Shown here: positions 13,675 through 63,180 of the stretch, piece by piece
How the letters are laid out: every line of letters starts with the position of its first letter
Numbering within the stretch: the first letter of the stretch is position 1
NCBI GenBank assembly: GCA_963760885.1
Contig: CAVXEY010000007.1
Span: 136,883-200,882 of the forward strand
DNA: 64,000 nucleotides
Direction: 5' to 3'
Source of the DNA: an uncultured delta proteobacterium
GTDB taxonomy: Bacteria; Desulfobacterota; Deferrimicrobia; Deferrimicrobiales; Deferrimicrobiaceae
Made by a program: the position numbers and the translations under genes
The notes under the pieces: generated by a model
Told to the model about the DNA's origin: nothing
The model's database searches: none
What the model saw: only the letters and a program-made list of their open reading frames with translations

Positions 13675-14560
13675 ACCGCCGCACGCCGCTCGGCAAAGGG
13701 GCGCTGAATCGTATCAGGGGCGCACAACAAGAATGGAACAGGAAGACTCGTCCCGATCGATTGCCGCAATGGCGATCCGCATCTTGTTTTATTTTGGCAT
13801 TTCCTCCATGGAGGGAAGGTGTGATGACAAGCGAATTGCGGATCCGGATCCCGGTTGCCGGATGCGAAAACGATGGCGGTTCGCCCCTCACCCTGCATAT
13901 CTGCGCAGGGCAGCACCCTCGGGGGAGGTTCCAGAAATAACGTATATATTTCGAATAATTTCATTAATATAGCGACTCAACCGCGTGCTCTCGACATTTT
14001 CGGATTCTCTTTGACCCTCGGAACGGGGGCGGGGAAAAACGGGTGATGAGATATTCGATGGCCTGTTGAGTTTTACAACACAAATTTTCGTTACGAATGC
14101 AATACGCATTTCCGCTGATTTCGGGGTGCAAAAATATTCCGCATCCAAAGATTTCCCGCCATCGAATCATTCGTGTGGCAATCCACCAGATAATTCATTA
14201 AATATCCGCATGTTGAACGGTGTCATGGATCCGGAATCCACCTCTGTGGCAATGAATGCGGTCGCCATGCGGCTGGAAGGGGGAATGTAGAAAAATTATA
14301 GTACTGTAGAATATTTCTATTATAGTATTCTTAAAAATATCGGTAGTAGCGGCATCATCTTCCACTTCATCCCATAAAATGATATTATTTCAAAAATAAA
14401 ATAATGTATCGGTGAAAATTATTTCGTAGTAAGCAGAATCGTCATAATTCCTTAATTTTGTCAATATCATTCAAGTCTTATATTGTAACAATAAAACATT
14501 ATTTTAATGTATTCGTATAATGGAAATAAATTATTTGTATGTCGTTTTGCTGAATTTGTA

Positions 14561-14589
14561 TTGACAGATACTGGAATTGTGCGTAGTTT
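14561..14589 (+). promoter_or_regulatory. sigma70-like promoter candidate inside the AT-rich island (TTGACA-17 nt-TAGTTT)
   Basis: Perfect -35 hexamer TTGACA, 17-nt spacer and TAGTTT -10, about 160 nt upstream of the hdrA-like gene. Confidence 0.4.
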
Positions 14590-14601
14590 GAAAATTATGA
14601 T

Positions 14602-14640
14602 GGTCAGGCCAATTCATGATGAAGGTCAGTCCAATTCATG
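14602..14640 (+). repeat. 17-nt direct repeat (GGTCAGGCCAATTCATG / GGTCAGTCCAATTCATG) with 22-nt periodicity
   Basis: Two copies with one mismatch, lying directly downstream of the candidate -10. Candidate operator or activator site. Confidence 0.5.
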
Positions 14641-14747
14641 CGGGAAAATCCCGGGAACTTCCTTCCATTACTTCGGAGCGTGACCGCGGACCACGGTATA
14701 GCGACTGTCAACCCCGATCAGAGCGGTACCGAACGAGGTAAAGCGCG

Positions 14748-16568
14748 ATGGTCAACGAATTGAGAACGGGCGTCTACATCTGCCAGGCAGGGATCGGCGG
14801 CGCCAACGACGTCGACCTGAAAAAAGTCGTCCGATACGCAGAAAGTCTCCCCAATGTCATAAAGGTTGGAATTCTGGGCGAGAATCCGAGACTCGATCCC
14901 GTTGTCCTCGCCCAGGAGATCCGGAACGACGAAATCGAGCGGATCGTCGTTGCGGGAGACTCTTCGGGGTACTTCAAGCCGGCCTTCACGTGCGCGATGG
15001 TTCAGGCGGGAGGCGATCCGGGCAACGTACTGGTTGCATCGTTCCTCGGAAACGGCGCCTCCGGACTGAACTCGACCGAACGTGCCAAGGGCGTAGTGGC
15101 CTGCTCCGTCTACGGCGTTCCCTTCGGACTGGCGGCGGTTCCGCAGTACGCGGCGGTTCACCCCGATACGCTCGTGATCGGCGGGGGCGTTGGCGGCATT
15201 CAGGCCGCCCTGGAAATCGCCGATGCCGGGAAGAAGGTCTTCCTCGTCGAGAAAAGCGGCACCATCGGCGGCCACATGGCGATGTTCGACAAGACCTTCC
15301 CGACCCTCGACTGCGCCGCCTGCATCCTGACCCCCAAGATGGTCGCTGTCGGTCAGCACAAGATGATCGACCTGATGACGTACTCCGAGGTCCAGGAGGT
15401 GACCGGATCGCCGGGGGCCTACAAGGTCAAGGTCCGAAGGTTCGCACGCCGCGTCGACGAAATCGCCTGCGTGGCCTGCAACGCCTGCTCCGAGGTCTGC
15501 CCGACCAGCGTTCCGAGCGAATTCGACGCCGGGATCAGCATGAGAAAGGCGATCTACGTTCCCTTCCCCCAGGCGGTGCCCAACTCTTTCCTGGTCGACG
15601 GCGATTCATGCCTCTACGTGCAGAGCGGCGGAAAGAAGTGCGGGGCGTGCGTCAAGAAGTGCGCGAAGGAAGCCATCCACCTCGACGACGAGGACCAGAT
15701 CGTCGAACTGACGGTCGGCAACATCGTCGTCGCTACCGGCTACGCCCCCTTCGACGCCAGGAGGATCGAGCGATACGGGTACGGCGTTTATCCCAACGTC
15801 CTCACGTCCCTCGAATTCGAGCGCCTGACGAACGCATCGGGCCCGACCGGCGGGAACATCGTGATGAAGGCCCTGCGGCACAACAAGCGCAAGAAGGTCG
15901 ACGAGTGGGTTTTCTCTACCGAGAATCCCAAACCGAAAAGCGTGGCGATCATCCACTGCATCGGCTCGCGCGACGAGAATTACAACTCGTACTGCTCGCG
16001 GGTCTGCTGCATGTACTCGCTGAAGTTCGCCCATCTGGTCCGGGAAAAGCTGCCCGACGCCGCCTGCTACGAGTTCTACATCGACATGCGCGCGTACGGG
16101 AAGAACTACGAGGAGTTCTTCCAGCGGATCGGGGAGGAAGGAGTCTTCCTTGTACGCGGCCGCACGGGCAAGGTCGTCGAGCAGAGCGGAAAGATGAGTA
16201 TCAAGGGCGAGGACATCGTTGGAGACAAGGTGCTCGAGTTCCAGGTCGACATGGTGATCCTCTCCGTAGGTTTGGAGGCGTCGGCCGATGCGGAGCGCCT
16301 CTCGGGACTTCTCGGAATCGCGCGCGACAAGGACGGCTGGTTCGCGGAACGGGACTACAACGCCGATCCGACCGGCACGGAACGCGGGGGAATCTTCGTC
16401 GCCGGCGTTTGTCAGGGGCCGAAGGACATCCCCGACACCGTATCACAGGCCTCGGCGGCGGCGGCCCGGGTCCTCAAGAGCATCCTCAGCGGGCGAATTC
16501 AGGAGAGTCGGTCCGGGTTGACGCTTGCCGATATCGAATCGCGCATCCGTCGTCAGGCGCACGCATAA
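14748..16568 (+). CDS. hdrA: HdrA-like FAD/FeS flavoprotein (heterodisulfide reductase subunit A family) with a cysteine-poor N-terminal domain
   Basis: FAD fold LVIGGGVGGIQAALEIADAGKKVFLVEKSG. HdrA signature CSRVCC. Inserted ferredoxin CVACNACSEVCP. The N-domain reads YICQAGIGG where canonical HdrA has CxCG. Confidence 0.85.
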   Translation: MVNELRTGVYICQAGIGGANDVDLKKVVRYAESLPNVIKVGILGENPRLDPVVLAQEIRNDEIERIVVAGDSSGYFKPAFTCAMVQAGGDPGNVLVASFLGNGASGLNSTERAKGVVACSVYGVPFGLAAVPQYAAVHPDTLVIGGGVGGIQAALEIADAGKKVFLVEKSGTIGGHMAMFDKTFPTLDCAACILTPKMVAVGQHKMIDLMTYSEVQEVTGSPGAYKVKVRRFARRVDEIACVACNACSEVCPTSVPSEFDAGISMRKAIYVPFPQAVPNSFLVDGDSCLYVQSGGKKCGACVKKCAKEAIHLDDEDQIVELTVGNIVVATGYAPFDARRIERYGYGVYPNVLTSLEFERLTNASGPTGGNIVMKALRHNKRKKVDEWVFSTENPKPKSVAIIHCIGSRDENYNSYCSRVCCMYSLKFAHLVREKLPDAACYEFYIDMRAYGKNYEEFFQRIGEEGVFLVRGRTGKVVEQSGKMSIKGEDIVGDKVLEFQVDMVILSVGLEASADAERLSGLLGIARDKDGWFAERDYNADPTGTERGGIFVAGVCQGPKDIPDTVSQASAAAARVLKSILSGRIQESRSGLTLADIESRIRRQAHA

Positions 16569-16584
16569 CACGGAGGACATGGAC

Positions 16585-17760
16585 ATGACCGTCCGTTCGA
16601 ACCCCAAGCTGGTCGAGGAAGTGAGGCGCTACGGCGCAGAGGACGTGCTCAAGTGCTACCACTGCGGCAACTGCAGCGCGGTCTGTCCGTTCTCGAAAGA
16701 GCCCTTCATCTTTCCACGGAAGTCCATGCGGTATCTCCAGATGGGACTTACGGAGAAGCTCAAGGGCAACCTTGAGCCGTGGCTGTGCTACTACTGCGGC
16801 GAGTGCTCGGAGCAGTGCCCGCGCGAGGCGGAGCCGGGCGAGACGATGATGAGCATGCGCCGCTGGCTCACCTCGCGGTACGACTTCACGGGGATCTCCC
16901 GGCTGTTCTACCAGTCCTGGAAGGCCGAACTGGCGGCGATCCTCCTCATGGCGGCGCTGACGGGGTTGGGATTCACCCTGTTCGGGTTGAAATACGGGGG
17001 AGGGGATATCCGGGTCTACGCGGGTCCCAACGCCTTCCTGCCCAGCGAAAGCGTGCACATCTTTGACTGGATCATGGGCGGGGTCCTCGGGGGACTGCTC
17101 ATGATCAATTGCGCCCGGATGTGGTGGTTCACGACGGGGAAGAGCGATACGCTGGAAATCTCCCTCTTCTCCTACATAAAGCACGCGCTTCTGCTGCCAT
17201 GGCATTTCATGACCCAGAAGCGATACAGCGAATGCGGCAAGAAAGGGCCGTGGCTGGTCCACTTCATCCTGGTGTGGAGTTATCTCACGCTTCTGATCCT
17301 GATCATGTTCTTCCTGAACCGGATGCATCACGGGCCGGAGACGCTCTGGGACGTCCACGCCTTCGGATACCTGGCGACTGCCGGGCTTCTCGGAACGACC
17401 TTCTACGCGTTGCGAGGCCGCTGGAAAAAAACCGAAACCCATTACAAGCACTCCCATGAAACCGACATGATCTTCCTGTACCTGCTGCTGTACGTCGGCG
17501 GGACAGGGATCCTGCAGAACATCCTTTACCGGGCCTTCGGCCTCGAAACCGCGGCCAACATCGTCTACATCGTGCACATGATGGGCGTCGTGCCGATGCT
17601 GACCCTCGAGGTTCCCTTCAGCAAGTGGGGCCACCTTGCCTACCGGCCCCTCGCGATGTACCTCTCCCGTCTTCATGTCGATGCGATAACGGCGAGGGAG
17701 GGCGCTTTAGAGCGGGCAAAGATCCCCGCGATGATGGCGCAGAAGCAGATGACCGCGTAG
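16585..17760 (+). CDS. QmoC-like protein: HdrC-type di-[4Fe-4S] domain fused to a multi-TM cytochrome-b-like (HdrE/NarI-like) membrane domain
   Basis: CYHCGNCSAVCP and CYYCGECSEQCP motifs, then about 6 TM helices with conserved His pairs. RBS GGAGGA 7 nt upstream of the ATG at 16585. Alternative ATG at 16579. Confidence 0.8.
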   Translation: MTVRSNPKLVEEVRRYGAEDVLKCYHCGNCSAVCPFSKEPFIFPRKSMRYLQMGLTEKLKGNLEPWLCYYCGECSEQCPREAEPGETMMSMRRWLTSRYDFTGISRLFYQSWKAELAAILLMAALTGLGFTLFGLKYGGGDIRVYAGPNAFLPSESVHIFDWIMGGVLGGLLMINCARMWWFTTGKSDTLEISLFSYIKHALLLPWHFMTQKRYSECGKKGPWLVHFILVWSYLTLLILIMFFLNRMHHGPETLWDVHAFGYLATAGLLGTTFYALRGRWKKTETHYKHSHETDMIFLYLLLYVGGTGILQNILYRAFGLETAANIVYIVHMMGVVPMLTLEVPFSKWGHLAYRPLAMYLSRLHVDAITAREGALERAKIPAMMAQKQMTA

Positions 17761-17772
17761 CCGGAGGAACGC

Positions 17773-19503
17773 ATGAAAAAAGAAGCGAGGATCGGCGTAT
17801 ACGTCTGCAATTGCGGAACCAACATCGCCAAGATGGTCGACTGCGAGGCGGTGTCCGGATTCGCATCCACGCAGCCCGGCGTGATCGCCTGCAAGTCGTA
17901 CAAGTACATGTGTTCCAACCCGGGCCAGGAAATGATCGTCAACGACATCCAGAACCTGAAACTCAACCGTGTCGTCGTCGCGGCGTGCAGTCCCCGCATG
18001 CACGAGCCGACCTTCCGCACCACTCTCGACAAGGCGGGGATCAACCCGTTCTTCCTCGAGATGGCCAACATCCGAGAGCAGTGCAGCTGGGTTCATGAAA
18101 ACCGCGAAACGGCCACGGACAAGGCGAAGGCATTGACCTGCGCGGCGATCCGCCGCGTGAAGCATCACGAACCGTTCAACAGGCAGTCCGTCCCGATGCA
18201 TCCCGCCACGCTGGTGATCGGCGGGGGCATCGCCGGCCTGACGGCCGCCCTCGAGCTCGCGGACGCCGATCAACCGGTGTACCTGGTCGAACGGGAGGAT
18301 CACCTCGGCGGCAACGTGGCCCGGATCGACCTGACGGCGCCTTATCTTTATTCCGCGCGCGACATGCTCAACGAGCGGATGACGCGCGTCCTCCGCCATC
18401 CCCGGATCACCGTCCTCCTCAACTCGGAGGTCGGGTCGATCTCGGGGTACGTGGGGAACTTCAAGGCCGTTATGAAGGGCGCGATTCCGGGCCAGGAGAT
18501 CGACGTGGGAAGCATCGTCGTCTGCACCGGCTTCCAGGAATTCGATGCGTCACGGGTTGCGCGCTTCGGGTACGGCCGGTTGCCCGACGTCATCACCTCG
18601 TTCGAGCTGGAACGGATGCTGCGCGAGGGGCGTGTCCTGACCCGGGGCGGCCACGAACCGAAGTACGTCACGCTGATCAACTGCGTCGGCAGCCGCAACG
18701 AGGAATACAACCATTACTGTTCGCGGGTCTGCTGCATGACCGCTCTGAAGTACGGGCACGAGATCCGGTCCGCGGTGCCGAATGTCTACATCCACAACCT
18801 CTACACCGACATGAACGCGTTCGGGAAGGGGTGCGAGGATTTCTACCTCCACAGCGCCGAGAGAAAAGCGATTTTCATGATGTACGGCCAGAACAACCCC
18901 CCTACGGTCGTTAATGCGAGGCCCGGGGACGGTTGCGGGTTGCTGGTTCGCGTGCATGAAATGCTCTCCGGGGAACACGTGGAGATCCCCGCCGACCTGG
19001 TCGTCCTGATGGTCGGCATGGAGGCCCGTTCCGACTCCGCACAGGTCGCGCGCCTGGTCAACATCAGCCGCGACAAGGACGGGTGGTTCATCGAAAGCCA
19101 TCCCAAGCTCGATCCGGTAGCCACCACGACCGACGGCATCTTCATCGCCGGGGTGTGCCAGGCACCGAAGGATATCCCCGAAACGGTCGCCCAGGCGCGG
19201 GCTGCCGTAGCCCGGATCCTGGGCAAAATAAGCAACGGAGAGATCGAAGTGGCGCCGGTGTTCGCCGAGATCGACGAGAACTTCTGTTCCGGCTGTCGCA
19301 TGTGCAACGAGCTGTGCCCCTACGCGGCGATCGAGTACAGCGTGGAAAAGAAGCGCAGTCACGTCATCAGTGTAATGTGCAAGGCGTGCGGAACCTGCGT
19401 CGCGGCCTGCCCGTCGGGCGCAATCAAGGGTCGACACTTCACGGATCGGGAAATCTGCGAAGAGATCGAGGGGGTGCTGGAATGGGATTCGAGCCGCGCA
19501 TAG
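17773..19503 (+). CDS. hdrA: HdrA (heterodisulfide reductase subunit A-like flavoprotein), canonical
   Basis: N-domain VYVCNCGTNI...C. FAD fold LVIGGGIAGLTAALELA. CSRVCCM. C-terminal ferredoxin CSGCRMCNELCP / CKACGTCVAACP. Confidence 0.85.
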   Translation: MKKEARIGVYVCNCGTNIAKMVDCEAVSGFASTQPGVIACKSYKYMCSNPGQEMIVNDIQNLKLNRVVVAACSPRMHEPTFRTTLDKAGINPFFLEMANIREQCSWVHENRETATDKAKALTCAAIRRVKHHEPFNRQSVPMHPATLVIGGGIAGLTAALELADADQPVYLVEREDHLGGNVARIDLTAPYLYSARDMLNERMTRVLRHPRITVLLNSEVGSISGYVGNFKAVMKGAIPGQEIDVGSIVVCTGFQEFDASRVARFGYGRLPDVITSFELERMLREGRVLTRGGHEPKYVTLINCVGSRNEEYNHYCSRVCCMTALKYGHEIRSAVPNVYIHNLYTDMNAFGKGCEDFYLHSAERKAIFMMYGQNNPPTVVNARPGDGCGLLVRVHEMLSGEHVEIPADLVVLMVGMEARSDSAQVARLVNISRDKDGWFIESHPKLDPVATTTDGIFIAGVCQAPKDIPETVAQARAAVARILGKISNGEIEVAPVFAEIDENFCSGCRMCNELCPYAAIEYSVEKKRSHVISVMCKACGTCVAACPSGAIKGRHFTDREICEEIEGVLEWDSSRA

Positions 19504-19916
19504 TAGGCTTCCTCTGCAACTGGTGCTCCTACACCGGGGCCGACCTCGCGGGGACCAGCAGGATCAAGTACCAGCCCAACGTGACTGTGATCCGGGTCAT
19601 GTGCTCCGCCAGGATCGATCCCACCTTCGTGATCAAGGCGCTGACCGCGGGCGCGGATGGCGTGCTCATCTGCGGCTGCCATCCAGGCGACTGCCACTAT
19701 GTCGAAGGAAACTACAAAACCATGCGCCGCTACCCGCTGTTGAAGCGGATGCTTCGGGACTTCGGAATCGAGGAGGAAAGGGTTCGCCTGGAATGGGTCA
19801 GCGCCAGCGAGGGGCAGCGTTTCGCCGACGTCATCAACGACATGACCGAGAAGGTCCGTGCGCTTGGCCCGAGCCGGATCCGGGTCTCGCTGGAAGCCGA
19901 CAAGGTCGCGAGGTGA
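19482..19916 (+). CDS. mvhD: MvhD (methyl-viologen-reducing hydrogenase delta subunit-like [2Fe-2S] protein)
   Basis: FLCNWCSY...ICGCHPGDCHY motif set. Overlaps the hdrA end by 22 nt. Confidence 0.85.
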   Translation: MGFEPRIVGFLCNWCSYTGADLAGTSRIKYQPNVTVIRVMCSARIDPTFVIKALTAGADGVLICGCHPGDCHYVEGNYKTMRRYPLLKRMLRDFGIEEERVRLEWVSASEGQRFADVINDMTEKVRALGPSRIRVSLEADKVAR

Positions 19917-19919
19917 GTC

Positions 19920-20883
19920 GTGGATAAGAAGAAACTACAGGTTGCACTTTACTGGGGTGCGGGATGCGGGGGCTGTGACGTGGCGGTCCTCGATACCGAC
20001 GAATTCATTCTCGAGCTTGCCGAAGTGGCCGACATCCGGTTGTGGCCCATCGCGGTGGACGCCAAGTATAAGGACGTCGAGGCGATGGCTCGACGGCGAG
20101 CTCGATCTGACGATTTTCAACGGGGCCGTCCGGAACAGCGAAAACGAGCACATCGCGAAGCTGTTGCGACGCAAGAGCAAGCTGGTGGTCGCTTTCGGTT
20201 CCTGCGCCCACCTGGGCGGGATCCCGGCGTTGGCGAACCAGACAACGAAAGAGGAGATCTTCGAGCGGGCGTACGGGAAGAATCCGTCGATCGAAGAGGG
20301 GAACACCACCGTCCCCCAGGCACATACCCGGGTGAACGGTGGCGAGCTCACGATCCCCATGTTCTACAGGCGGGTCTACAAGTTGGACGACGTGGTGGAC
20401 GTGGACCTGTATGTCCCCGGCTGCCCACCGGCCCCCGAACAGGTCAAGGCGGTGCTCAAGGCGGTGGCGAGCAACCTGCTTCCGCCGAAGGGCAGCGTGG
20501 TGGGCGCTTCGGAACGCGCGGTCTGCGACGATTGCCTGAGGAAGAAGGAAGAAAAGAAGGTCAAACGATTCTACCGGCCGTGGCAGATCATCCAGGATCC
20601 CGAACGGTGCCTGATGGAACAGGGCATCCTTTGCGCCGGATCGGCGACCCGCTCCGGGTGCGGTGTGCGCTGCCCGAACAGCAACATGCCGTGCCGCGGC
20701 TGTTACGGCCCGCTGCCCAATGTCATGGACCAGGGAGCGAAGCTTCTGAGCGCGGTGGCTTCGATCATCGACAGCAAGGATCCCGAGGAGATCGACCGGA
20801 TCCTTGACGGGATTCAGGATTTCACCGGATACGCCTACCGTTTCGGGATGGCGGGATCCCTATTGCAGAGGAGAACCGGCTGA
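19920..20883 (+). CDS. mvhG: [NiFe]-hydrogenase small subunit (MvhG-like), apparently frameshifted near 20085-20095
   Basis: N-terminus MDKKKLQVALYWGAGCGGCDVAV...KDVEAM is in frame 0. The rest (DGELDLTIFNGAVRNSENE...GSCAHLGGIP...CPPAPEQ...CRGCYGP) is in frame +1. One extra nt at ~20089. Confidence 0.7.
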
Positions 20884-22349
20884 TGGCCAGAACGATCAGC
20901 ATTGATCCCATTACGCGTCTGGAAGGGCACGGGAAGATAGAGATCTTCCTCAACGACGACGGGAGCGTGAAGGATTGCCACTTCCAGATCCCCGAACTGC
21001 GCGGTTTCGAGCGTTTCGTGGTCGGCAGGCCGGTCGAAGAACTGCCGCGCATCGTCACCCGGATCTGCGGCGTTTGCCCCGCCAGCCACCATCTGGCCGG
21101 TGCGAAAGCCGTCGACGGATGCTTCGGCGGAGAATTGCCTCCGCTGGCATTCAAACTTCGTGACATGTACTACCAGGCGCATTTCATCCACAGCCACATC
21201 GCCCACTTCTTCGCGCTGGCGGCGCCGGATTTCGTCTGCGGGCCGCAATCCGACCCGGCCCTGCGCAATATCCTCGGCGTCGTCGCCAAGGTCGGCCCGG
21301 AAATCGGCGGCAAGGTAATCAAGTCGCGGTCACAGGCCCAGAGGATCCAGCAGATCATCGGCGGCAGGAGCACGCACGTGGTGTGGGCCATTCCCGGCGG
21401 TGTGTCCAAGGGTCTCAAGGCTGAAGAGCTCGCGGAAATCAAACCGATGGTCGACGAGCTCTACGATTTCACCCTCTTCTCGATAAAGCTGTTCAAGGAC
21501 GTCGTGCTGGGCAACCCGGAATACCTGGACCTGATCCTCAACGGGCCGTACAACCTCGATATACAGAACATGGGGCTGGTGGACCGGAACAATGCGCCCA
21601 ACTTCTACGACGGCAAGGTCAGGGTGGTCGATTTCAAGGGCGAGGAAATCTGCAAATATTCGTCCAAGGAATATGCCGACAACGTGGCCGAGCACGTGGA
21701 ACCGTGGTCCTATCTGAAGTTCCCTTACCTGAAGCAGCGGGGGTGGAACGGGTTCGCCGAGGGGATCGATTCCAGCATCTACATGGCGACGCCGCTTTCG
21801 CGGCTCAACGTGGCCGACAGGATGGCGACGCCGAAGGCCCAGGAGGCGTTCGAGGAGATGTTCCAGACCTTGAAACAGAAGCCGTGCCGCGCGTTGATGG
21901 CGGCCCACTGGGCCAGGTTGGTGGAAATGGTGCAGAACGCCGAGACGCTGAAGATGTACTGCGCCGACCCGGAGATCACCGGCGACCGGTACCGGGTCGT
22001 CCCGCAAGGGATCACGGGGGAAGGCGTAGGGATCGTGGAGGCGATGCGGGGCACCCTGACGCATCACTACACTTGCGACAAGAACGGGATCTGTACCAGC
22101 GCGAACCTGATCGTCGGCACCACGAACAACAATGCGGCGATCCACATGGTTACCCGGAAGGCGGCCTCCGGACTCATCAAGCCGGGAGTCGAGCCGACCG
22201 AGGGGGTCCTGAATATGGTCGAAATGGCGTTCCGGACGTTCGATCCGTGCTTCAGCTGCGCGACGCACAGCCTTCCCGGGCAGATGCCGCTCCAGGTTAA
22301 GATCTTCAAGGGAGGCGGGCTTTATCGCGAATTCCAGCGCTGCTGTTAG
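20883..22349 (+). CDS. mvhA: [NiFe]-hydrogenase large subunit (MvhA-like, group 3)
   Basis: N-terminal RICGVCPASH (L1) and C-terminal DPCFSCATH (L2) Ni-Fe ligand motifs. The C-terminal extension is consistent with protease maturation. Confidence 0.85.
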   Translation: MARTISIDPITRLEGHGKIEIFLNDDGSVKDCHFQIPELRGFERFVVGRPVEELPRIVTRICGVCPASHHLAGAKAVDGCFGGELPPLAFKLRDMYYQAHFIHSHIAHFFALAAPDFVCGPQSDPALRNILGVVAKVGPEIGGKVIKSRSQAQRIQQIIGGRSTHVVWAIPGGVSKGLKAEELAEIKPMVDELYDFTLFSIKLFKDVVLGNPEYLDLILNGPYNLDIQNMGLVDRNNAPNFYDGKVRVVDFKGEEICKYSSKEYADNVAEHVEPWSYLKFPYLKQRGWNGFAEGIDSSIYMATPLSRLNVADRMATPKAQEAFEEMFQTLKQKPCRALMAAHWARLVEMVQNAETLKMYCADPEITGDRYRVVPQGITGEGVGIVEAMRGTLTHHYTCDKNGICTSANLIVGTTNNNAAIHMVTRKAASGLIKPGVEPTEGVLNMVEMAFRTFDPCFSCATHSLPGQMPLQVKIFKGGGLYREFQRCC

Positions 22350-22373
22350 GCGGGTGAAGGGAAGGGGCGTCGG

Positions 22374-22895
22374 GTGAAGACGTTGTTGCTCGGGATGGGG
22401 AACCCCATCCTTTCCGACGATGCGGTCGGCGTGCGGCTCGCGCGCGACATCGGGAAGCGGCTGGCAGGTACCACGGGACTCAGCACCGTGGAAGAGTGCT
22501 CGGTCGGCGGCCTCAATATCCTTGATATTGTCTCGGGTTTCGACCGCCTGATCGTGCTGGATTCGATCCGTACCGTCCGGGGAATTCCCGGGGAATGGCA
22601 TCGGTTCACGTCGGATGCGCTGCGTGGTACGATGCACTTGAACAATATACATGACGTCAACTTCGCAACGGCCCTCGAATTGGGGCGGAGGATGGGGGTG
22701 CCGCTGCCGTCCGGGGAGGATATCCACATCTTCACGGTGGAGGTGCAGGATACCGAGACGTTCAGCGAGGTGATGACCGGACTGCTCGAGCGATCGTACC
22801 CGGTGTATTTCGGGGGAATCTTGATGGAAATCGAAGAGATCCTCGCGGGAAACGATGCGGATACCGCTTATCAGGAATATGGAGGTCGAACATGA
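22374..22895 (+). CDS. hydrogenase maturation endopeptidase (HyaD/HybD/FrhD family)
   Basis: MKTLLLGMGNPILSDDAVGVR...LIVLD pattern typical of this protease family. Confidence 0.8.
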   Translation: MKTLLLGMGNPILSDDAVGVRLARDIGKRLAGTTGLSTVEECSVGGLNILDIVSGFDRLIVLDSIRTVRGIPGEWHRFTSDALRGTMHLNNIHDVNFATALELGRRMGVPLPSGEDIHIFTVEVQDTETFSEVMTGLLERSYPVYFGGILMEIEEILAGNDADTAYQEYGGRT

Positions 22896-23299
22896 CGAAT
22901 CTCCTGAATGACCAGGCCAGGGTCGAGCTTTCGGTGCTGAAAAAGTACGGCCTGCGGTACGCCATTCTGGCGGCCTGGGCCCACGAACTGCGGGATCGAG
23001 GCATTACGGATCCACCAAGTCTCTCCAAATCGTTCGAGAAGGTTCGCGTGAAGATCTCTTCCGGTTGTTTCTCGGTCTGCGATGTGGGATGCGACCTGGG
23101 ACGTATCGAGGCGATCCTCTTCTCGGCCGCTACAACCACGGGGCAGGAAACAGCAGACTCCTGGGTGGATATGCTGGGCGAATGCATGTCGGAGTATGCG
23201 AACATCGACGAGATCGAAAAGAGGATCGACGTTCAGGCGGTGAAGTTGCATTACAACCGGTTCGACTTCACCGGCGCCTGCGGCGAATGCGAAGGCTGA
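22892..23299 (+). CDS. hypothetical Cys-rich small protein co-transcribed with the hydrogenase genes
   Basis: 135-aa ORF whose start overlaps the protease stop (ATGA). Motifs CFSVCDVGCD and a C-terminal CGEC. Confidence 0.5.
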   Translation: MTNLLNDQARVELSVLKKYGLRYAILAAWAHELRDRGITDPPSLSKSFEKVRVKISSGCFSVCDVGCDLGRIEAILFSAATTTGQETADSWVDMLGECMSEYANIDEIEKRIDVQAVKLHYNRFDFTGACGECEG

Positions 23300-23369: not shown

Positions 23370-23444
23370 TGGTGGGCGCTACAGGATTTGAACCTGTGAC
23401 TTCCACCGTGTGAAGGTGGCACTCTACCGCTGAGTTAAGCGCCC
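23370..23444 (-). tRNA. tRNA-Val (anticodon CAC)
   Basis: Reverse complement GGGCGCTTAACTCAGCGGTAGAGTGCCACCTTCACACGGTGG...GGTTCAAATCCTGTAGCGCCCACCA. Cloverleaf with CAC anticodon and 3' CCA. Confidence 0.85.
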
Positions 23445-24377: not shown

Positions 24378-24473
24378 GGAAGCGGATGGGGCGCTGGTGG
24401 CCCCCCCGGACTTCAAATCCGGTCGGGAGGCGGAAACGTCTCCGGTGGGTTCGATTCCCTCACGCTTCCGCCA
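24378..24473 (+). tRNA. selC: tRNA-Sec-like (anticodon UCA, long variable arm, ~96 nt)
   Basis: GGAAGCGG...CCGGACTTCAAATCCGG...(long extra arm)...GGGTTCGATTCCC...CGCTTCCGCCA. The anticodon loop CTTCAAA gives a TCA anticodon. The acceptor stem is 7 bp plus a G.A pair, which is not ideal for a bacterial Sec tRNA. Confidence 0.7.
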
Positions 24474-35873: not shown

Positions 35874-36710
35874 ATGAATTCCATGGAATTCTCCCTCCTG
35901 GTTTGTCTGGGAGGCGTGGCGGCGGGATTCCTCGGGTCCCTGACGGGGTTGGGGGGCGGTATCGTCATCGTGCCGCTCCTGGTCCTGTGGTTCGGGGTCG
36001 ACCTCCGGTATGCCATCGGCGCGTCCCTCATCTCGATCATCGCCACCTCCTCCGGGGCCGCGGCGGTCTACGTAAAGGAAGGATACACGAACTTCCGGAT
36101 CGGGATGTTTCTGGAGATCGCGACGACCGTGGGAGCAGTGGTCGGGGCGTTCCTGGCGGCCAGGGTCTCGCCTTCCTCGATCGCGGTCGTCTTCGGGGTC
36201 GTTCTCCTTTACTCGGCGTACCAGTCGAACCGCCCGCCACCGGAACGGCCGGAAGCCGCCGCGCCCGATCCGGTGGCAACCTTCCTGAAAATGGATTCGA
36301 ATTATCCGACGGTCAACGGTCCGCGATCCTACCGTGTGTCCAATGTCCCGGGTGGTTTCAGCCTGATGTTCGTCGCCGGAACGCTCTCCGGTCTGCTCGG
36401 AATCGGGTCGGGGGCCGTCAAGGTGCTCGCGATGGACCAGGTCATGCGTATCCCGTTCAAGGTTTCGACGACCACAAGCACCTTCATGATCGGCGTGACG
36501 GCGGCCGCCAGTGCCGGAGTCTACTTGAGCCGCGGATACATCGATCCGGTCCTTGCCATGCCGGTCCTGCTGGGGGTCCTCGCCGGGTCCATGGTCGGCG
36601 CCGGGATATTGGCCCGCACGGAGACCCGGATCCTGCGCATCGTATTCAGCCTGGTCATCCTGGCGCTCGGCGCGGAACTCATCTACAACGGGCTGACGGG
36701 AAGGATTTAG
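35874..36710 (+). CDS. sulfite/anion exporter TauE/SafE family (DUF81) membrane protein
   Basis: Internally duplicated 4+4 TM pattern with LGGGIVIVPLL and GIGSGAVKVLAM motifs. Confidence 0.8.
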   Translation: MNSMEFSLLVCLGGVAAGFLGSLTGLGGGIVIVPLLVLWFGVDLRYAIGASLISIIATSSGAAAVYVKEGYTNFRIGMFLEIATTVGAVVGAFLAARVSPSSIAVVFGVVLLYSAYQSNRPPPERPEAAAPDPVATFLKMDSNYPTVNGPRSYRVSNVPGGFSLMFVAGTLSGLLGIGSGAVKVLAMDQVMRIPFKVSTTTSTFMIGVTAAASAGVYLSRGYIDPVLAMPVLLGVLAGSMVGAGILARTETRILRIVFSLVILALGAELIYNGLTGRI

Positions 36711-37268: not shown

Positions 37269-38033
37269 CTACACCCCGGGAATCTTCTCCGGGGAGCGGC
37301 CGAGGAAGCCGAGGATGCCGTACAGGAGCGTCAGCGGGTGGGGAGGGCACCCGGGGATGAACAGATCGACCGGCAAGACGGCACCGACGCCGTTTTCGAC
37401 CGCATAGGAGTCCCGGAAGATCCCGCCGCTTGCGGCGCATGCGCCGATCGCGATGACGATCCGGGGCTCCGCGATCGCCTCGTACGTCTTGACAAGGGCC
37501 ACCCGCATGTTCTTCGACACGGGGCCGGTTACCAGCAGCCCGTCCGCGTGCCGGGGGGATGCGACGAAGTCGATCCCGAACCGCTGCAGATCGAATACAG
37601 GGTTTCCGAGCGCCTGCGCTTCGAGGTCGCAGCCGTTGCAGCCGCCGGCGGACACTTCCCGCAGGTGAAGCGACCGGCCGAGGAGGGACCGGATGTCCTG
37701 GGAGGCCGTCAGGGGGGGAAATTCCTGCCCTCCAAGCACAAGGTGTTCCCGCTTGCCGCACGGGAGACGGGGATCCTGCGAGAACCGGATTCCCTCGCCG
37801 CCGCATGCTTCCTCGCACAGGCCGCAGAAGACGCACCGCCCGAGGTCGATCGTCCTCTTCTCCGGGTCGATCGCGTCCGTGGCGCACGCCTTCGCACACG
37901 TCGCGGCGACACCGAGGATCCGGAACGCCTCCCCGATCTCCGGCATTCCGCGGAACGGAGACGGGAGATCACCCGCCGGCAGGGCTACGGTTACGTTTCC
38001 CGCGCTCGTTCGCTTCATTATCGATTCCAGCAT
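37269..38033 (-). CDS. group-4-hydrogenase-type small subunit (NuoB/HycG-like) with an N-terminal ferredoxin-like (HycF/NuoI-like) extension
   Basis: CVFCGLCEEAC cluster motif, then GGCNGCDLE...IAIGACAASGG...PGCPPHP (proximal [4Fe-4S] ligands). GAGG RBS before the ATG at 38033. Confidence 0.75.
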   Translation of the reverse strand: MLESIMKRTSAGNVTVALPAGDLPSPFRGMPEIGEAFRILGVAATCAKACATDAIDPEKRTIDLGRCVFCGLCEEACGGEGIRFSQDPRLPCGKREHLVLGGQEFPPLTASQDIRSLLGRSLHLREVSAGGCNGCDLEAQALGNPVFDLQRFGIDFVASPRHADGLLVTGPVSKNMRVALVKTYEAIAEPRIVIAIGACAASGGIFRDSYAVENGVGAVLPVDLFIPGCPPHPLTLLYGILGFLGRSPEKIPGV

Positions 38034-38044
38034 GGAATACCTCG

Positions 38045-39580
38045 TTAAAGGTCCGTGCCCGCGTACGACAGGTTGAAGCTCTTGTTGCACACGGGGAAGT
38101 CGGAGATGACGTTTTTCTGGACGGCGAACGACAGGGCCGGCCAGTTACGGAACGACGGGTCGACGACCTTGTAGCGCGTGATCCGCCTCTCGCCGTCGAA
38201 GACGGCCGCATGGACGATCTCACCGCGCCACCCCTCTTCGATGGACACGGCCAGACAGCGGCCGGCGGCGGGGGCGACCCCTTCCGCCGCGATCGAGCCC
38301 GGGGGCATCTCCCCGGCGAGGATGCCGGAAAGCCACTCGAACGAGGCCCGCATCTCCATGACCCGGACTCTTGCGCGGGCCATCACGTCCCCGGCGTCGA
38401 GCAGTACCTTCGCCGGGGGCGAGTCCACATAGGCCGGGGAAGGGAAGTCCCGCCGCGCGTCGACGTCCCGGCCGGAGGCGCGGGCCGCCATGCCCACGAA
38501 TTGGAGCGTCTTCGCCGTGTGCGGGAAAAGACGCCCCGTTCCTTCCATCCGGGCTCCGACCGACGGGGCATCCAGCAGCATCGTCCCGACCCCTTCCACT
38601 TCGGATCGCAGGCGCCCCAGCTCCGCCATCAGGTCTTCCGGAGCGATCCCCGGGACGCGGGGGCCGATCCCTCCGATCCGGTTCAGCCCGCGCCCGTAAC
38701 GGTTTCCGGTGATCTTCAGAAGCAGGTTCAGCGCCGCGCCGCGGAGGCGCCCGAAGTGGGCCGCCCCGAACAGGTATCCGATGTCGGTCGAGAGCCCCCC
38801 GAGGTCCCCGCAATGGTTCGAGATCCGCTCGATCTCGAGCGAGACGGCGCGCCATCGTTCCGCGGAGCGGTTCGCGGGGTTCCCCGTGATCGCTTCGAGG
38901 AGGCGGGCGCACGCGGTCGCGTGCCCCACTGCGGTGTCCCCCGAGATCGATTCGGAAAGGAGGATCTTCCCCATCCCCGGATCGCCGGGCAGGAGGGTTT
39001 CGATCCCCTTGTGCTGGTATCCCAGACGGATCTCGAGGTTCTGGATCGTCTCTCCGGCGCAGGAAAAACGGAAGTGCCCCGGTTCGATGATCCCGGCGTG
39101 GACGGGCCCCACCGCCACCTCGTGGATTCCCTCGCCCCGCACAAGAAGGAACCGGTAGGCACGGCGCGGATCGGGCGCGGGCGCATCCGCGGAACGCAAT
39201 GGGAAGAACTTCTCCGGCCACGCTTCATGGAAGCGCAGGGGGTTGAGCTCGGGATGGCCTTCCGGAACCAGGCCGAAGAGGTCGTAGACTTCCCGCTCGA
39301 ACCAATGGGTTCCGGGGCAGACGTCGGTGAACGTCCGGAAGGAGCGCGGGGAGGTCTCCACGCAGGCGTGGACGAACCGGCCCGGTGCGGCCCCCCCGGC
39401 GACCGCGTGAAGAAGAAATCGTCCGGAAGATGGCTCCTCCGCGAACAACGCGAGGAGGCGGTCGCCGCCGGTGGATGTTTCACGGAGGAACGCGCGGAAC
39501 GCTTCCTCCTTCAGCGGGGAGGTGTTGCCGAGGTCGAACGTGCGGACACAGCGCATCGACTTGTCCCTTTCGCCGTTCAT
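38045..39580 (-). CDS. group-4-hydrogenase-like large subunit (NuoC+NuoD / HycE-like) lacking the NiFe cysteine ligands (Ehr-like)
   Basis: NuoC-like N-domain (EVYDLFGL...). NuoD-like GPVHAGIIEPGHFRF. The L1 position reads SISGDTAVGH instead of RxCGxCxxxH. The C-terminus reads DFPVCNKSF instead of DPCxxCxxR. Confidence 0.8.
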   Translation of the reverse strand: MNGERDKSMRCVRTFDLGNTSPLKEEAFRAFLRETSTGGDRLLALFAEEPSSGRFLLHAVAGGAAPGRFVHACVETSPRSFRTFTDVCPGTHWFEREVYDLFGLVPEGHPELNPLRFHEAWPEKFFPLRSADAPAPDPRRAYRFLLVRGEGIHEVAVGPVHAGIIEPGHFRFSCAGETIQNLEIRLGYQHKGIETLLPGDPGMGKILLSESISGDTAVGHATACARLLEAITGNPANRSAERWRAVSLEIERISNHCGDLGGLSTDIGYLFGAAHFGRLRGAALNLLLKITGNRYGRGLNRIGGIGPRVPGIAPEDLMAELGRLRSEVEGVGTMLLDAPSVGARMEGTGRLFPHTAKTLQFVGMAARASGRDVDARRDFPSPAYVDSPPAKVLLDAGDVMARARVRVMEMRASFEWLSGILAGEMPPGSIAAEGVAPAAGRCLAVSIEEGWRGEIVHAAVFDGERRITRYKVVDPSFRNWPALSFAVQKNVISDFPVCNKSFNLSYAGTDL

Positions 39581-40992
39581 GAGAACGCGACCACGGTGGA
39601 GAGCCGCTCCAGGGTCTTGTACAAGCCCGCGGGGACGTGGAGCCCCAGCCACAGGGAGGCAAGAAGCAGGACGCACGCCGGGAGGAGGCACCAAAGTTCC
39701 GGGCCGGCAAGTTTTCGCGGCACGCCTTCCCCGAAGACCATGCCGCTGCCGTACATGAGGAAGGATCCGAAAAGAATCGCGAGCAGGACGAGGTATGCGA
39801 GGGAAACGGCCAGGTGCCCGCCCGCGATCCCCCCGACGAGGATGCCGAACTCGCTCCAGAAGGCGCCGAACGGCGGGGATCCCGTGATCGCGAGGACCCC
39901 GCCGAACAGCAGGACGCCGCGCAGCGGAGACTCCCTCAGGATCCCGTGGATATGCCGGATCTTCTGCGTGCCGAACCGCAGGATGAGGTCTCCGGCGACG
40001 AGGAAGAGCAGGACCTTGGCCACGGAGTGGTTCAGCACGTGCAGCAGTGCTGCCGGTCGGGCGGCCCCGCCGAACCCGAGCCCGAGGACGACGATCCCCA
40101 TGTTCTCGATCGAGGAAAAGGCGAGCAACCGCTTGATGTCCCGCTGGACCGCCACGAGGAGCGCGGGAACCGCGATCGATAGAATCCCGAAGAGGATCAG
40201 CAGGGGCGAAGCGTACGCACCGGGGACCGCCGGGGCGACCCGCAGGATCGAGAGCAGGGCGCAGTTCAGCAAGACCCCCGACAGCATCGCGGAAGACGGC
40301 GCGGGAGCCTGGCTGTGCGCGTCCGGAAGCCACGTGTGCATCGGCGCGAGCCCCATCTTGGTACCGTACCCTACGAGAAAGAAGAGGAACGCCAGCCGCA
40401 GGAAGCGTGGGTCGAGCCGCTTCGCGGCAAGGGGAAGCGCCGTGTACGTCAGCGGGATGTCCCCGGCCGCCCGCGAGAGGAAGATGATCCCGAGGAAGGC
40501 CAGGGCGATCCCGACCGAGCAGATGAGCAGGTACTTCCAGGCGGCCTCCATTCCTCGGCGGTCCCCGTGCAGGTAGATGAGCGGGGCCGAGAAGAGCGTC
40601 GTGGCCTCTACGGCGACCCATTGCAGGGCGAGGTGGTGGGAGCAGACGACCACGACCATCGAGAGGACGAACAGGTTGGTCCACACGTGATACATCTGCA
40701 CCTTGGCCGGGCCGATGTGCCCTCCCTCGAGCTCCCGCCGGAAATACCCGTACGCGTACACGGAGCACAGGAAGTGAATGCCGGCGACGATCAGGAGGAA
40801 GTAGGATCCGAGCTCGTCGAGCCGCAGAAGTTCGCCCCACGCGGCGATGCGGGGGGACAGCCCCTGGATCACCGCGCCGGAAAGGAGCGCGGTCGCGCCG
40901 ACGACGGTTCCGAGGGCGGCCTGCCAAGGGGCGCGCGACAGAAGTGCCAGGATCACCCCGGTCAACGGGGCGAGGAGCAGCAGCGGGATCAT
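39577..40992 (-). CDS. antiporter-like membrane subunit (NuoN/NuoM/HyfF-like)
   Basis: 472 aa, about 14 TM helices. Conserved TKMGLAPMHTWLPDAH motif of the Mrp/NuoLMN family. Confidence 0.8.
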   Translation of the reverse strand: MIPLLLLAPLTGVILALLSRAPWQAALGTVVGATALLSGAVIQGLSPRIAAWGELLRLDELGSYFLLIVAGIHFLCSVYAYGYFRRELEGGHIGPAKVQMYHVWTNLFVLSMVVVVCSHHLALQWVAVEATTLFSAPLIYLHGDRRGMEAAWKYLLICSVGIALAFLGIIFLSRAAGDIPLTYTALPLAAKRLDPRFLRLAFLFFLVGYGTKMGLAPMHTWLPDAHSQAPAPSSAMLSGVLLNCALLSILRVAPAVPGAYASPLLILFGILSIAVPALLVAVQRDIKRLLAFSSIENMGIVVLGLGFGGAARPAALLHVLNHSVAKVLLFLVAGDLILRFGTQKIRHIHGILRESPLRGVLLFGGVLAITGSPPFGAFWSEFGILVGGIAGGHLAVSLAYLVLLAILFGSFLMYGSGMVFGEGVPRKLAGPELWCLLPACVLLLASLWLGLHVPAGLYKTLERLSTVVAFS

Positions 40993-40994
40993 CC

Positions 40995-41621
40995 CTAATC
41001 CTTCAACGTGTGGATTTTCCGGACGTCCATGTGCGTGAACGTCCGCTGGATCTTGAGCATCAGGATCCCCATCAGGAAGACTGCGACGAACAGGTCGAGG
41101 AAGATCCCCAGCTCGATCGGCAGCGTGAACTCGCTGCCCGACGCCGCGCCGAACAGGAAAATCCCGTTTTCGAGGACGACGAACCCGATCACCTGGGTGA
41201 CGGCCTTGACGCGCGTGGTCATCATGAGGAGGCCGGAAAAAAGGAGCGTGAGTCCCGCGGCGGCGCCGAGCTGGTCCTGGCCGGAAAGCCCGAACCGGTC
41301 GCAGGCGACGAAGGCGGAAAGGGCGAGCACCCCCGTAAGAAGGACGGAGGTCTTCGTCGATACGAGCGATTCCGTCTCCCGCTTGATCTCCAGGCGGGAA
41401 ACGGCGTGGGTGAGGATCGCCGGAATCGCCACACTCTTCACGGCGACGGTGGCGAGGCCCAGCGCCACGGCGCGCCACAAGGGCCGGGGCGACGCGAGGA
41501 AGGGGAGGAGGGCGAGCAGAACTCCTTGCGCGGCCAGTGACCGGATTGCGGTGGGGATGCGCTCCGTCATGGCCATGTGGAGGCCGAGGAGGAGAAGGAG
41601 AACGGTGACGGTGCCCATCAT
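40995..41621 (-). CDS. HyfE-like small membrane subunit of hydrogenase-4-type complexes
   Basis: 208 aa with 6 TM helices. Position and size match HyfE/NuoK-like subunits. Confidence 0.7.
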   Translation of the reverse strand: MMGTVTVLLLLLGLHMAMTERIPTAIRSLAAQGVLLALLPFLASPRPLWRAVALGLATVAVKSVAIPAILTHAVSRLEIKRETESLVSTKTSVLLTGVLALSAFVACDRFGLSGQDQLGAAAGLTLLFSGLLMMTTRVKAVTQVIGFVVLENGIFLFGAASGSEFTLPIELGIFLDLFVAVFLMGILMLKIQRTFTHMDVRKIHTLKD

Positions 41622-41631
41622 CTTTCCCCCC

Positions 41632-42534: not shown

Positions 42535-42549
42535 GAATGCGTCTCTCCC

Positions 42550-62760: not shown

Positions 62761-62803
62761 GTCGCAAAGTCGTGGAACACAAACCAGAAGGGGGTGGGCA
62801 GGA

Positions 62804-63154
62804 ATGAAGAGATTCGCAATGTTGTTGGCAGTCGTCATGTTGGGGGTGTTCTCGGCCGGCACGATCGTCGCGGCGAACGTTCCCGTGAAAGTGACCATCA
62901 AGGATGTGCAGAAGTCGAGGCCGCCGGTTACCTTCGACCACAAGGCGCACGCGGAACGGATCAAGAATTGCGAGGAGTGCCACCACAAGGACAAGCCCGG
63001 CAAGGAGCAGTCGTGCTTTGTCTGCCACAAGGCCGAGAAGAAGGGCGACGTGATCTCTTTGAAGGACGCCATGCACACGAAGTGCAAGGGGTGCCATTCG
63101 AAGGACGCGACGAAGAAGGCTCCTACGAAGTGTGACGGCTGCCACAAGAAGTAG
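62804..63154 (+). CDS. tetraheme cytochrome c3 family protein
   Basis: Signal peptide. 116 aa with four CxxCH motifs (CEECHH, CFVCH, CKGCH, CDGCH). VTFDHKAHAE start typical of class III cytochromes. RBS GAAGGGGG. Confidence 0.8.
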   Translation: MKRFAMLLAVVMLGVFSAGTIVAANVPVKVTIKDVQKSRPPVTFDHKAHAERIKNCEECHHKDKPGKEQSCFVCHKAEKKGDVISLKDAMHTKCKGCHSKDATKKAPTKCDGCHKK

Positions 63155-63180
63155 GCGATCCGCGGTTTCGCGAACGTCGG

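Follow-up and report, generated by a model that had tools for sequence, protein, structure and literature searches.

Two groups of enzymes are related to the system described here. For the Qmo complex, a third partner, possibly a hydrogenase, has been proposed to be needed, and a confurcation model has been favored (Ramos et al. 2012). No one has yet demonstrated this leading idea about Qmo, con- or bifurcation that involves a third partner, for example a hydrogenase. In the solved Hdr complexes, HdrA's inserted ferredoxin domain is the low-potential exit, and the N- and C-terminal domains together with MvhD/VhuD make up a mobile hydrogenase arm. A gene cluster with components of both was reported from the archaeon Candidatus (Ca.) Methanoglobus nevadensis, with speculation on electron flow among H2, ferredoxin, and menaquinone (Buessecker et al. 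2023, ISME J 17:1649; bioRxiv 10.1101/2022.12.01.518715). A "unique" Mvh-Qmo-Hdr cluster is highly transcribed in cultured Ca. M. hypatiae, for which bifurcation to menaquinone (MQ) and ferredoxin was proposed (Lynes et al. 2024, bioRxiv 10.1101/2023.09.08.556235). Here, we describe an hdrA-qmoC-mvh operon in a 64-kb stretch of DNA (hereafter, the window) from an uncultured delta proteobacterium of the Deferrimicrobiaceae.

By sequence and family searches, positions 14748-23299 of the window hold eight densely packed genes on the same strand, in the order hdrA1, qmoC-like, hdrA2, mvhD, mvhG, mvhA, maturation protease, and a small Cys-containing open reading frame (ORF). We consider it fairly probable that the product of this operon is a [NiFe] hydrogenase complex, anchored in the membrane and put together around HdrA flavoproteins, that bifurcates electrons from H2 to MQ and ferredoxin. 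By gene composition, the operon belongs to a kind that has already been noticed: set against the published description of the Ca. Methanoglobus cluster, all components are present and adjacent, and the idea of an H2:menaquinone/ferredoxin enzyme is already published for archaea. The genes are as follows (FAD, flavin adenine dinucleotide).

14748-16568, + strand: hdrA1, HdrA-like FAD/Fe-S flavoprotein, 606 amino acids
16585-17760, + strand: qmoC-like gene, fusion of an HdrC-like 2x[4Fe-4S] domain with a six-helix cytochrome b domain of the NarI/HdrE type, 391 amino acids
17773-19503, + strand: hdrA2, HdrA-like flavoprotein, 576 amino acids
19482-19916, + strand: mvhD, [2Fe-2S] adaptor subunit of the FlpD family, separate gene, 144 amino acids
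19920-20883, + strand: mvhG, small subunit of the [NiFe] hydrogenase, with a 1-nt insertion that splits the frame
20883-22349, + strand: mvhA, [NiFe] hydrogenase large subunit, 488 amino acids
22374-22895, + strand: hydrogenase maturation endopeptidase, 173 amino acids (TIGR00072, 69.1 bits, above the cutoff of 47.45)
22892-23299, + strand: ORF of 135 amino acids with six cysteines (CxxxCxxxC, CxxC) and no assigned family

This gene content, order, and placement had been given in an initial annotation made from the nucleotide sequence alone. They were borne out by family searches, by the translations, and by comparison with contig L001, an ENA metagenome contig that encodes an identical MvhA protein and shares 96.7% DNA identity with the window over ~20.8 kb. 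Exact look-up with MvhA alone led to this contig; the same look-up with the QmoC-like protein and with protein P0121 gave no contig. Overall, the initial annotation is confirmed in part as an observation and supported in its interpretation, and the function is one that we infer.

The HdrA pair, the QmoC-like subunit, and the hydrogenase genes

Both HdrA paralogs retain the GxGxxG FAD motif and the [4Fe-4S] signature, and they align to solved HdrA proteins with E values of 1e-134 to 1e-149. HdrA1, which scores 545 and 393 bits on the NCBIfam models for HdrA2 and HdrA (both under the cutoffs), carries an inserted ferredoxin domain with eight cysteines, a DCxxC pair beside the FAD, and the cluster motif C-x-G-S-R...YCSxxCC. 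It aligns to residues 2-571 of M. thermolithotrophicus HdrA (5odc_A; E value, 1e-134), and this alignment spans the inserted ferredoxin domain and ends before the C-terminal ferredoxin domain. HdrA2 (592 bits on NCBIfam) has the N-terminal cluster cysteines and a C-terminal 2x[4Fe-4S] ferredoxin domain, without the inserted domain and without the DCxxC pair. Its alignment to M. maripaludis HdrA (8rvu_a) covers residues 10-241 and 326-656, skipping the inserted domain and including the C-terminal one.

The N-terminal domain of HdrA1 had been described as depleted in cysteine, and this is the case: it reads YICQAGIGG, versus YVCNCGTNI in HdrA2, and the loss is kept in orthologs. Among the ~60 HdrA1 orthologs examined, the N-terminal cluster cysteines are never present, and the DCxxC pair, the inserted domain's eight cysteines, and the signature for [4Fe-4S] are kept (Cys pattern in 60 of 61). 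HdrA2 orthologs retain the N-terminal cysteines along with the signature and all eight C-terminal cysteines, and they have no DCxxC pair (Cys pattern in 55 to 56 of 57). Where MvhADG-HdrABC has a single HdrA with all domains, this operon has two paralogs, each without what the other keeps. Because these complementary losses are fixed in about 60 orthologs, we regard the pair as a case of evolved asymmetry, not decay. To judge from the conserved motifs, HdrA1/HdrA2 looks like an evolved asymmetric heterodimer that has a single input arm and a single exit to ferredoxin.

The claim that a QmoC-type fusion lies between the two hdrA genes also holds. Its product matches the NCBIfam qmoC model NF038018 over the full length (positions 4-358 of 360) with a score of 175.4 bits, under the cutoff of 300. 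Relatives from every type of locus examined score 173 to 198 bits on this model, and P0317, a distant member of the superfamily, reaches 305.7 bits and passes the canonical qmoC cutoff. The N-terminal 100 residues align to the solved HdrC chains of 7BKB, 5ODC, and 8RVU, with E values down to 1e-11 for the single sequence and of 2.5e-14 with a profile of 31 homologs. Beyond this HdrC-like part, the protein has no sequence match among solved proteins (PDB) and none in Pfam; a relaxed Pfam scan gave one sub-threshold match to Nitrate_red_gam (E value, 0.004) in one homolog. A structure model predicts six membrane helices, and a fold search with the membrane domain ranks M. smegmatis EtfD (9OJN) and E. 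coli NarI (1Q16 chain C) first.

We compared 21 QmoC representatives that are 25 to 55% identical to the window protein, one of them above the canonical cutoff. None of them departs from the window protein at the eight Fe-S cysteines or at H226, H331, or D294, and H350 is present in 20 of the 21. In the close clade, H207, H226, H258, H291, H331, and H350 are invariant and H158 nearly so. Candidate heme-ligating histidines, whose absence the initial annotation had named as grounds for abandoning its reading, are thus conserved across the QmoC superfamily. In the topology of the model, H158 and H331 lie near the outer membrane face and H226 and H350 near the cytoplasmic face, positions that would fit bis-His ligation of two stacked hemes. 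A PFS(K/R)xxH motif stands at the cytoplasmic end of the last helix; we take it to resemble a motif of NarI and offer this as a lead only. The architecture of QmoC, an HdrC-like 2x[4Fe-4S] domain plus a membrane cytochrome b domain with conserved histidines, is therefore found here, with heme binding predicted.

The third part of the operon supplies the MvhA, MvhG, and MvhD subunits of MvhADG-HdrABC, mvhG being frameshifted in the window and intact in L001. The mvhD gene begins MGFEPRIVGFLCNWC... and overlaps the end of hdrA2 by 22 nt; it is a free-standing gene, as the initial annotation had it, and not a fusion. VhuA, VhuG, and VhuD are the best NCBIfam matches of the three products, all under the equivalog cutoffs: MvhD scores 129 bits on VhuD (and 189 bits on the model of the HdrA2 C-terminal domain), MvhG 210 bits on VhuG, and MvhA 366 bits on VhuA, where the cutoff of 800 is not reached. 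MvhA also matches Pfam NiFeSe_Hases (E value, 5.6e-34), and its translation has the nickel-binding motifs RICGVCPASHH and DPCFSCATH and a cleavable C-terminal extension. On these motifs and scores, it appears closest to the Vhu/Mvh type and group 3c-like. Two open frames that had been candidates for MvhD (19523-19927) and MvhG (19920-20807) gave no family match and were set aside, as the real mvhD starts at 19482 and mvhG is frameshifted.

The frameshift itself requires comment. One extra T near 20090 shifts the reading frame, at about 20088-20090, after ...KYKDVEAM, beyond the N-terminal CxxC motif. The "complete MvhDGA" of the initial annotation stands insofar as all three genes are there and fails for mvhG as it reads in the window; in L001, mvhG is an intact ORF of 320 amino acids (Pfam Oxidored_q6), next to an MvhD of 144 amino acids (Pfam FlpD). 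Programmed frameshifting is ruled out, as the gene is uninterrupted in near-identical and in distant orthologs. If the insertion is real, the operon in the window genome could be a recently inactivated pseudogene cluster, since the split falls after the N-terminal CxxC cluster motif of MvhG. We find this doubtful: the other operon genes are intact and ~99% identical to those of L001, with 100% identity for the MvhA protein. Moreover, single-base indels relative to L001 also break an outer-membrane barrel gene (24036) and an ABC transporter gene (28918) that are intact in L001, which is the pattern of assembly error, and the contig names resemble those of long-read assemblies, as far as names can tell. 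The indels in mvhG and at 24036 and 28918 are probable assembly errors.

The 135-amino-acid ORF at the end of the operon gave no match in Pfam and NCBIfam scans and has just 25 homologs, none named, among 5.8 billion proteins. It follows the protease only in L001, L003, L004, and L056 among the 81 loci described below and is an accessory gene restricted to the closest relatives.

Distribution, variant loci, and genomic surroundings

The initial annotation had called this arrangement unusual, and in fact it is not rare. More than 1,700 homologs of the QmoC-like protein were detected, of which the top 120 are all at least 62% identical, and a scan of one genome per GTDB species confirmed close relatives in at least 594 genomes. 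We examined 81 loci, namely, the 80 best related loci and L001. The full order hdrA1-qmoC-hdrA2-mvhD-mvhG-mvhA recurs in 53 of the 81, so that the search for the same order in other taxa, suggested at the outset, was answered; 48 also have the protease, and in seven further loci, contig ends interrupt an order that otherwise agrees. By the labels of the metagenome-assembled genomes (MAGs), the hosts include Acidobacteriota, Thermoleophilia and other Actinomycetota, Krumholzibacteriota, Aminicenantes, Latescibacterota, Sumerlaeota, Eisenbacteria, Anaeromyxobacteraceae, Polyangiaceae, and others. The closest named locus belongs to a "Deltaproteobacteria bacterium" MAG, at 88 to 89% identity. The PurA protein encoded in the window shares a 90% cluster with proteins of MAGs labeled Ca. 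Deferrimicrobiaceae, Ca. Deferrimicrobium, and "Deltaproteobacteria," so that the host is probably related to Deferrimicrobia.

The same core is found with other input modules. In L017 and L019 (Thermoanaerobaculia), the genes after mvhD encode an Fe-S protein and a molybdopterin enzyme whose motif CARL(TGA)HS marks it as a selenocysteine formate dehydrogenase. In L019 (14128-16182), this catalytic subunit replaces MvhGA, and it is a selenoprotein because the in-frame TGA in DHCARL(TGA)HSVTVAGL is read through. Six loci have no mvh genes after hdrA1-qmoC-hdrA2. The upstream genes of two of these, L045 and L074, are Flx-like, with an Fe-S protein and a NAD/FAD-binding subunit in both and, in L045, an additional FlpD protein and a second Fe-S protein; the other four have an MvhD-like gene ~5 kb upstream. 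The order is nearer to qmoABC in 13 loci. One of these, L058 (4880-11698), encodes a GltD-fused "HdrL-like" flavoprotein of 965 amino acids upstream, an HdrA-like protein with a C-terminal ferredoxin domain, an ORF of 82 amino acids, a QmoC-like protein, and a DsrE-family gene downstream; it is possibly a related system with a link to NAD(P)H or to sulfur. Pfam scans of the flanks of L045, L058, L017, L019, and L074 found no CCG-domain protein; the remaining related loci were compared with the operon's own proteins only.

Two further observations concern the history of these genes. L004 (709-9321) is a mosaic relative to the window, with 97% identity for MvhD, 96% for MvhA, 79% for HdrA1 and HdrA2, and 69% for QmoC, which suggests recombination or separate histories of the Mvh and Hdr/Qmo halves; this locus apparently carries frameshifts too. 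A second hdrA-mvhD-mvhG cluster without qmoC lies a few kilobases upstream in several loci, on the same strand in L006, L033, and L067 and on the opposite strand in L021, L032, L050, and L053. It mostly comes with mvhA or with mvhA and the protease, and its proteins are mostly ~45 to 65% identical to those of the window, those of L053 less so.

Within the window, we looked for the partners of the canonical systems. A nearby hdrBC or aprAB, which the initial annotation had recognized as fatal to its interpretation, would make the locus a rearranged canonical system; this is ruled out by a scan of all sizeable window ORFs. No CCG-domain protein (HdrB/DsrK), AprAB, Sat, or Dsr is encoded in the 64 kb (gene calls of L001 and Pfam on all sizeable ORFs). 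The operon therefore has neither the aprBA/sat linkage of canonical QmoABC nor, within the window, an HdrB with CCG domains, the heterodisulfide site of the methanogen complex.

The operon is flanked by housekeeping genes. Upstream are those for a cysteinyl-tRNA synthetase and a methyltransferase; downstream lie tRNA-Val, the outer-membrane barrel gene, tRNA-Sec, QueH, an M50 peptidase, ABC exporters, purine genes, and pyruvate carboxylase. An Rfam scan of the window found tRNAs only. Three noncoding features adjoin the operon.

13941-14747, strand not assigned: AT-rich noncoding region of ~0.8 kb upstream of hdrA1, where GC falls to 0.54
23370-23444, - strand: tRNA-Val (Rfam)
24378-24473, + strand: tRNA-Sec (Rfam, 74 bits)

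The GC content of the window is ~66%. The AT-rich region contains two tandem direct repeats with units of 22 to 23 nt, at 14295-14341 and 14594-14637; it may serve as a promoter or in regulation and could contain binding sites for a regulator. No sigma-54 promoter match was found upstream of the operon, and sigma-70-like matches there are at chance level. At the matching point of L001 (2146-2871), a universal-stress-protein (Usp) gene of ~725 bp is present that is missing from the window (~13750), upstream of the operon. Because a tRNA-Sec gene is present, the host uses selenocysteine; no protein of the window operon requires an in-frame TGA.

Other redox genes lie farther away. A membrane cluster related to group 4 hydrogenases and complex I occupies 37269-44541 on the - strand, with NuoB-like, fused NuoC/NuoD-like, two antiporter-like, and NuoH-like genes, and a strong positive AT skew covers the positions from 40 to 44 kb of the window. 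A TauE/SafE sulfite-exporter gene is found at 35874-36710. At 60928-63998, a GltD-like Fe-S flavoprotein (Fer4_20 plus Pyr_redox_2) and a class III (c3/c7-type) multiheme cytochrome c are encoded, with ResB adjacent.

Proposed electron flow and its alternatives

From the observed gene content, conservation of domains and ligands, fold, synteny, and swapping of input modules, we infer a single complex, the electron path through it, its use of quinone and ferredoxin, and its direction. MvhA and MvhG would oxidize H2, and the electrons would travel from MvhG through MvhD and HdrA2 to an HdrA flavin. There, they would part. One branch would lead by way of the two clusters in the HdrC-like domain of QmoC and then two b hemes to membrane menaquinone, and the other through the inserted ferredoxin domain, retained only by HdrA1, to a low-potential ferredoxin (Fd). 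The overall reaction would be 2 H2 + MQ + 2 Fd(ox) -> MQH2 + 2 Fd(red) + 2 H+, possibly reversible. This would be flavin-based bifurcation in which the quinone pool substitutes for heterodisulfide and HdrB. If the quinone site lies near the outer face, as in NarI, quinone reduction would consume membrane potential, which the reaction in reverse would generate.

The potentials of H2 and ferredoxin are -414 mV and about -450 mV. That of MQ/MQH2 is about -75 mV (Ramos et al. 2012). Calculated from these potentials, the overall reaction is exergonic, with a margin similar to that of the heterodisulfide case. Every cofactor-binding element that the proposed path requires is present and conserved. 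Bifurcation to quinone is also favored by the complementary domain losses of the HdrA pair, by the synteny kept in 53 of the 81 loci, by the lack of HdrB, DsrK, or AprAB within 64 kb, by the joining of the hdrA1-qmoC-hdrA2 core to Mvh, Sec-formate dehydrogenase, or Flx-like NADH modules, and by the earlier proposal of this function for the Ca. Methanoglobus gene set. This exchange of H2, formate, and NADH inputs on a constant core is the pattern known from HdrABC with Mvh, Fdh, and Flx; the modular variants strengthen the functional reading, and they add interest, as does the breadth of the operon in uncultured bacteria.

Several points weigh against this proposal. HdrA2, like its orthologs, has no Cys pair beside its flavin. 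No ferredoxin gene is linked to the operon in the window. The heme-ligand assignment is a prediction from conservation and a structure model. The window copy may be inactive because mvhG is frameshifted. Purified QmoABC transferred no electrons between menaquinol analogues and its partner in vitro (Ramos et al. 2012), and a search of open-access papers and preprints found no biochemical or genetic work, solved structure, or assay on the complex.

The complex might also run in the opposite direction, as a confurcating, H2-evolving enzyme in which menaquinol at QmoC and reduced ferredoxin together reduce protons at low H2. Such an enzyme would reoxidize the quinol pool in fermentative or syntrophic growth and could add to the proton-motive force, with quinol oxidized near the outer face. 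Group 3 hydrogenases are treated as possibly bidirectional, the NarI-type fold is that of a quinol-oxidizing anchor, the window additionally encodes a membrane complex with kinship to group 4 hydrogenases, and confurcation with a hydrogenase is the model favored for Qmo by Ramos et al. (2012). We nevertheless think that H2 evolution is unlikely to be the main role. Many hosts are soil Acidobacteriota and Thermoleophilia, which are not known syntrophs. By calculation, the mean of the potentials of MQH2, at about -75 mV, and of ferredoxin, at about -450 mV, meets H+/H2 only at or below ~1 Pa of H2. In addition, the Ca. M. hypatiae cluster is expressed in a setting interpreted as H2 uptake.

A simpler enzyme would be a plain, non-bifurcating cytoplasmic H2:quinone oxidoreductase in which the HdrA proteins are wires or two-to-one-electron converters and no ferredoxin takes part. 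The lack of an operon-linked ferredoxin gene is what such an enzyme would lead one to expect, as is an HdrA2 without the flavin-adjacent Cys pair and the inserted domain; not every HdrA-containing enzyme is said to bifurcate. The inserted domain of HdrA1 would have no role in a simple wire to QmoC, however, and yet it keeps its eight cysteines in 60 of 61 orthologs. Two large flavoproteins would also be wasteful for an exergonic transfer of ~340 mV downhill, and the core takes NADH and formate modules as well, like bifurcating HdrABC. We therefore consider a plain oxidoreductase very unlikely.

Least probable is a classical Qmo that serves an adenosine 5'-phosphosulfate (APS) reductase encoded elsewhere, in sulfate reduction or sulfite oxidation, with Mvh as the third partner: such a partnership was proposed by Ramos et al. 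(2012), a TauE/SafE gene lies at 35874-36710 of the window, and a DsrE-like gene adjoins qmoC in a related variant locus, but no sat, aprAB, or dsr gene is present within 64 kb, the qmoC score is far under the equivalog cutoff, the host phyla are mostly not known sulfate reducers, and the archaeal carriers have no AprAB, Sat, or DsrAB.

Bifurcation of H2 electrons to menaquinone and ferredoxin thus remains our preferred reading of the operon. Extending it to the related loci, we put forward, as a tentative proposal that may well be right, that hdrA1-qmoC-hdrA2(-mvhD) is a general, modular, quinone-linked bifurcation core and, within the HdrA class, the counterpart of FixABCX. Across hundreds of bacterial species, most of them uncultured, from at least eight phyla, it would split electrons from H2, formate, or NADH to menaquinone and ferredoxin or, reversed, vent quinol electrons as H2 or formate. 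If so, this core would be a major uncharacterized route by which ferredoxin is reduced and hydrogen is cycled in soils and sediments and would give a direct experimental handle on Qmo-type complexes. At least several hundred species carry the operon, in lineages that are abundant in soil and sediment (Acidobacteriota, Thermoleophilia, and others), and genome-based metabolic models that label its genes "cytoplasmic Mvh/Hdr" or "ferredoxin" may miss a membrane-coupled hydrogen pathway.

Comparison with known systems

We found no account of the bacterial distribution or of the Fdh/Flx variants in open-access papers and preprints, and searches of the same literature for "group 3c" with QmoC and for "QmoC-like" or "Qmo-like" returned nothing. 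The genome paper on MBNT15/Deferrimicrobium leaves the cluster unmentioned. An "HdrAC2-MvhAGD" cluster of Dissulfuribacter is an unconfirmed candidate that might have the same arrangement.

The likeness to canonical QmoABC lies in a QmoC-type subunit and two HdrA-like flavoproteins, with HdrA2 plus MvhD having the domain content of QmoB. That the operon is not a canonical QmoABC, as the initial annotation maintained, is clear from the qmoC score (175 versus 300), the gene order A-C-A instead of A-B-C, an MvhD that is separate and not fused to QmoB, and the lack of linkage to aprBA/sat. In place of qmoA-qmoB-qmoC, the order is hdrA1-qmoC-hdrA2; HdrA1 exceeds the described size of QmoA and contains the inserted ferredoxin domain, and the operon itself includes a hydrogenase. 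With that hydrogenase beside a Qmo-like core and neither HdrB nor AprAB, the operon is a clean system in which to test the idea of con- or bifurcation by Qmo.

MvhADG-HdrABC of methanogens (5ODC, 8RVU, 7BKB) shares MvhA, MvhG, and MvhD, the FAD and Fe-S motifs of HdrA, and the HdrC-like two-cluster domain. The initial annotation was also right to separate the operon from this complex: the window encodes no CCG-domain HdrB/DsrK protein and hence no heterodisulfide site, the HdrC-like domain is fused to a cytochrome b, and HdrA is split, not a homodimer. FlxABCD-HdrABC of Desulfovibrio and Fdh-Hdr likewise have exchangeable input modules attached via an MvhD-type adaptor. Their terminus is HdrBC with a disulfide (DsrC or CoM-S-S-CoB), whereas that of the operon's complex is a quinone-linked cytochrome b.

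Quinone as the high-potential acceptor has a precedent, according to a review, in the NADH-dependent flavin-based bifurcation of FixABCX/EtfABCX, with ferredoxin or flavodoxin as the other acceptor. The Etf-type flavoprotein of that system is unrelated to HdrA, however, and it has no hydrogenase and no cytochrome b anchor. If the operon's product does bifurcate, it would be the first HdrA-type enzyme with quinone as the high-potential acceptor, and (facultative) anaerobes could make reduced ferredoxin from H2 and feed the respiratory chain at the same time. NarI and EtfD match the fold of the membrane domain, although sequence similarity is undetectable or marginal and the partner enzymes differ.

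The closest system of all is the Mvh-Qmo-Hdr cluster of Ca. Methanoglobus (Archaeoglobi), which has the same components, is without AprAB and HdrB, and has the same proposed electron flow from H2 to menaquinone and ferredoxin. That cluster is archaeal and was called "unique" and "fascinating," whereas the operon described here is bacterial, is widespread, and has variants in which Fdh or Flx modules take the place of the hydrogenase.

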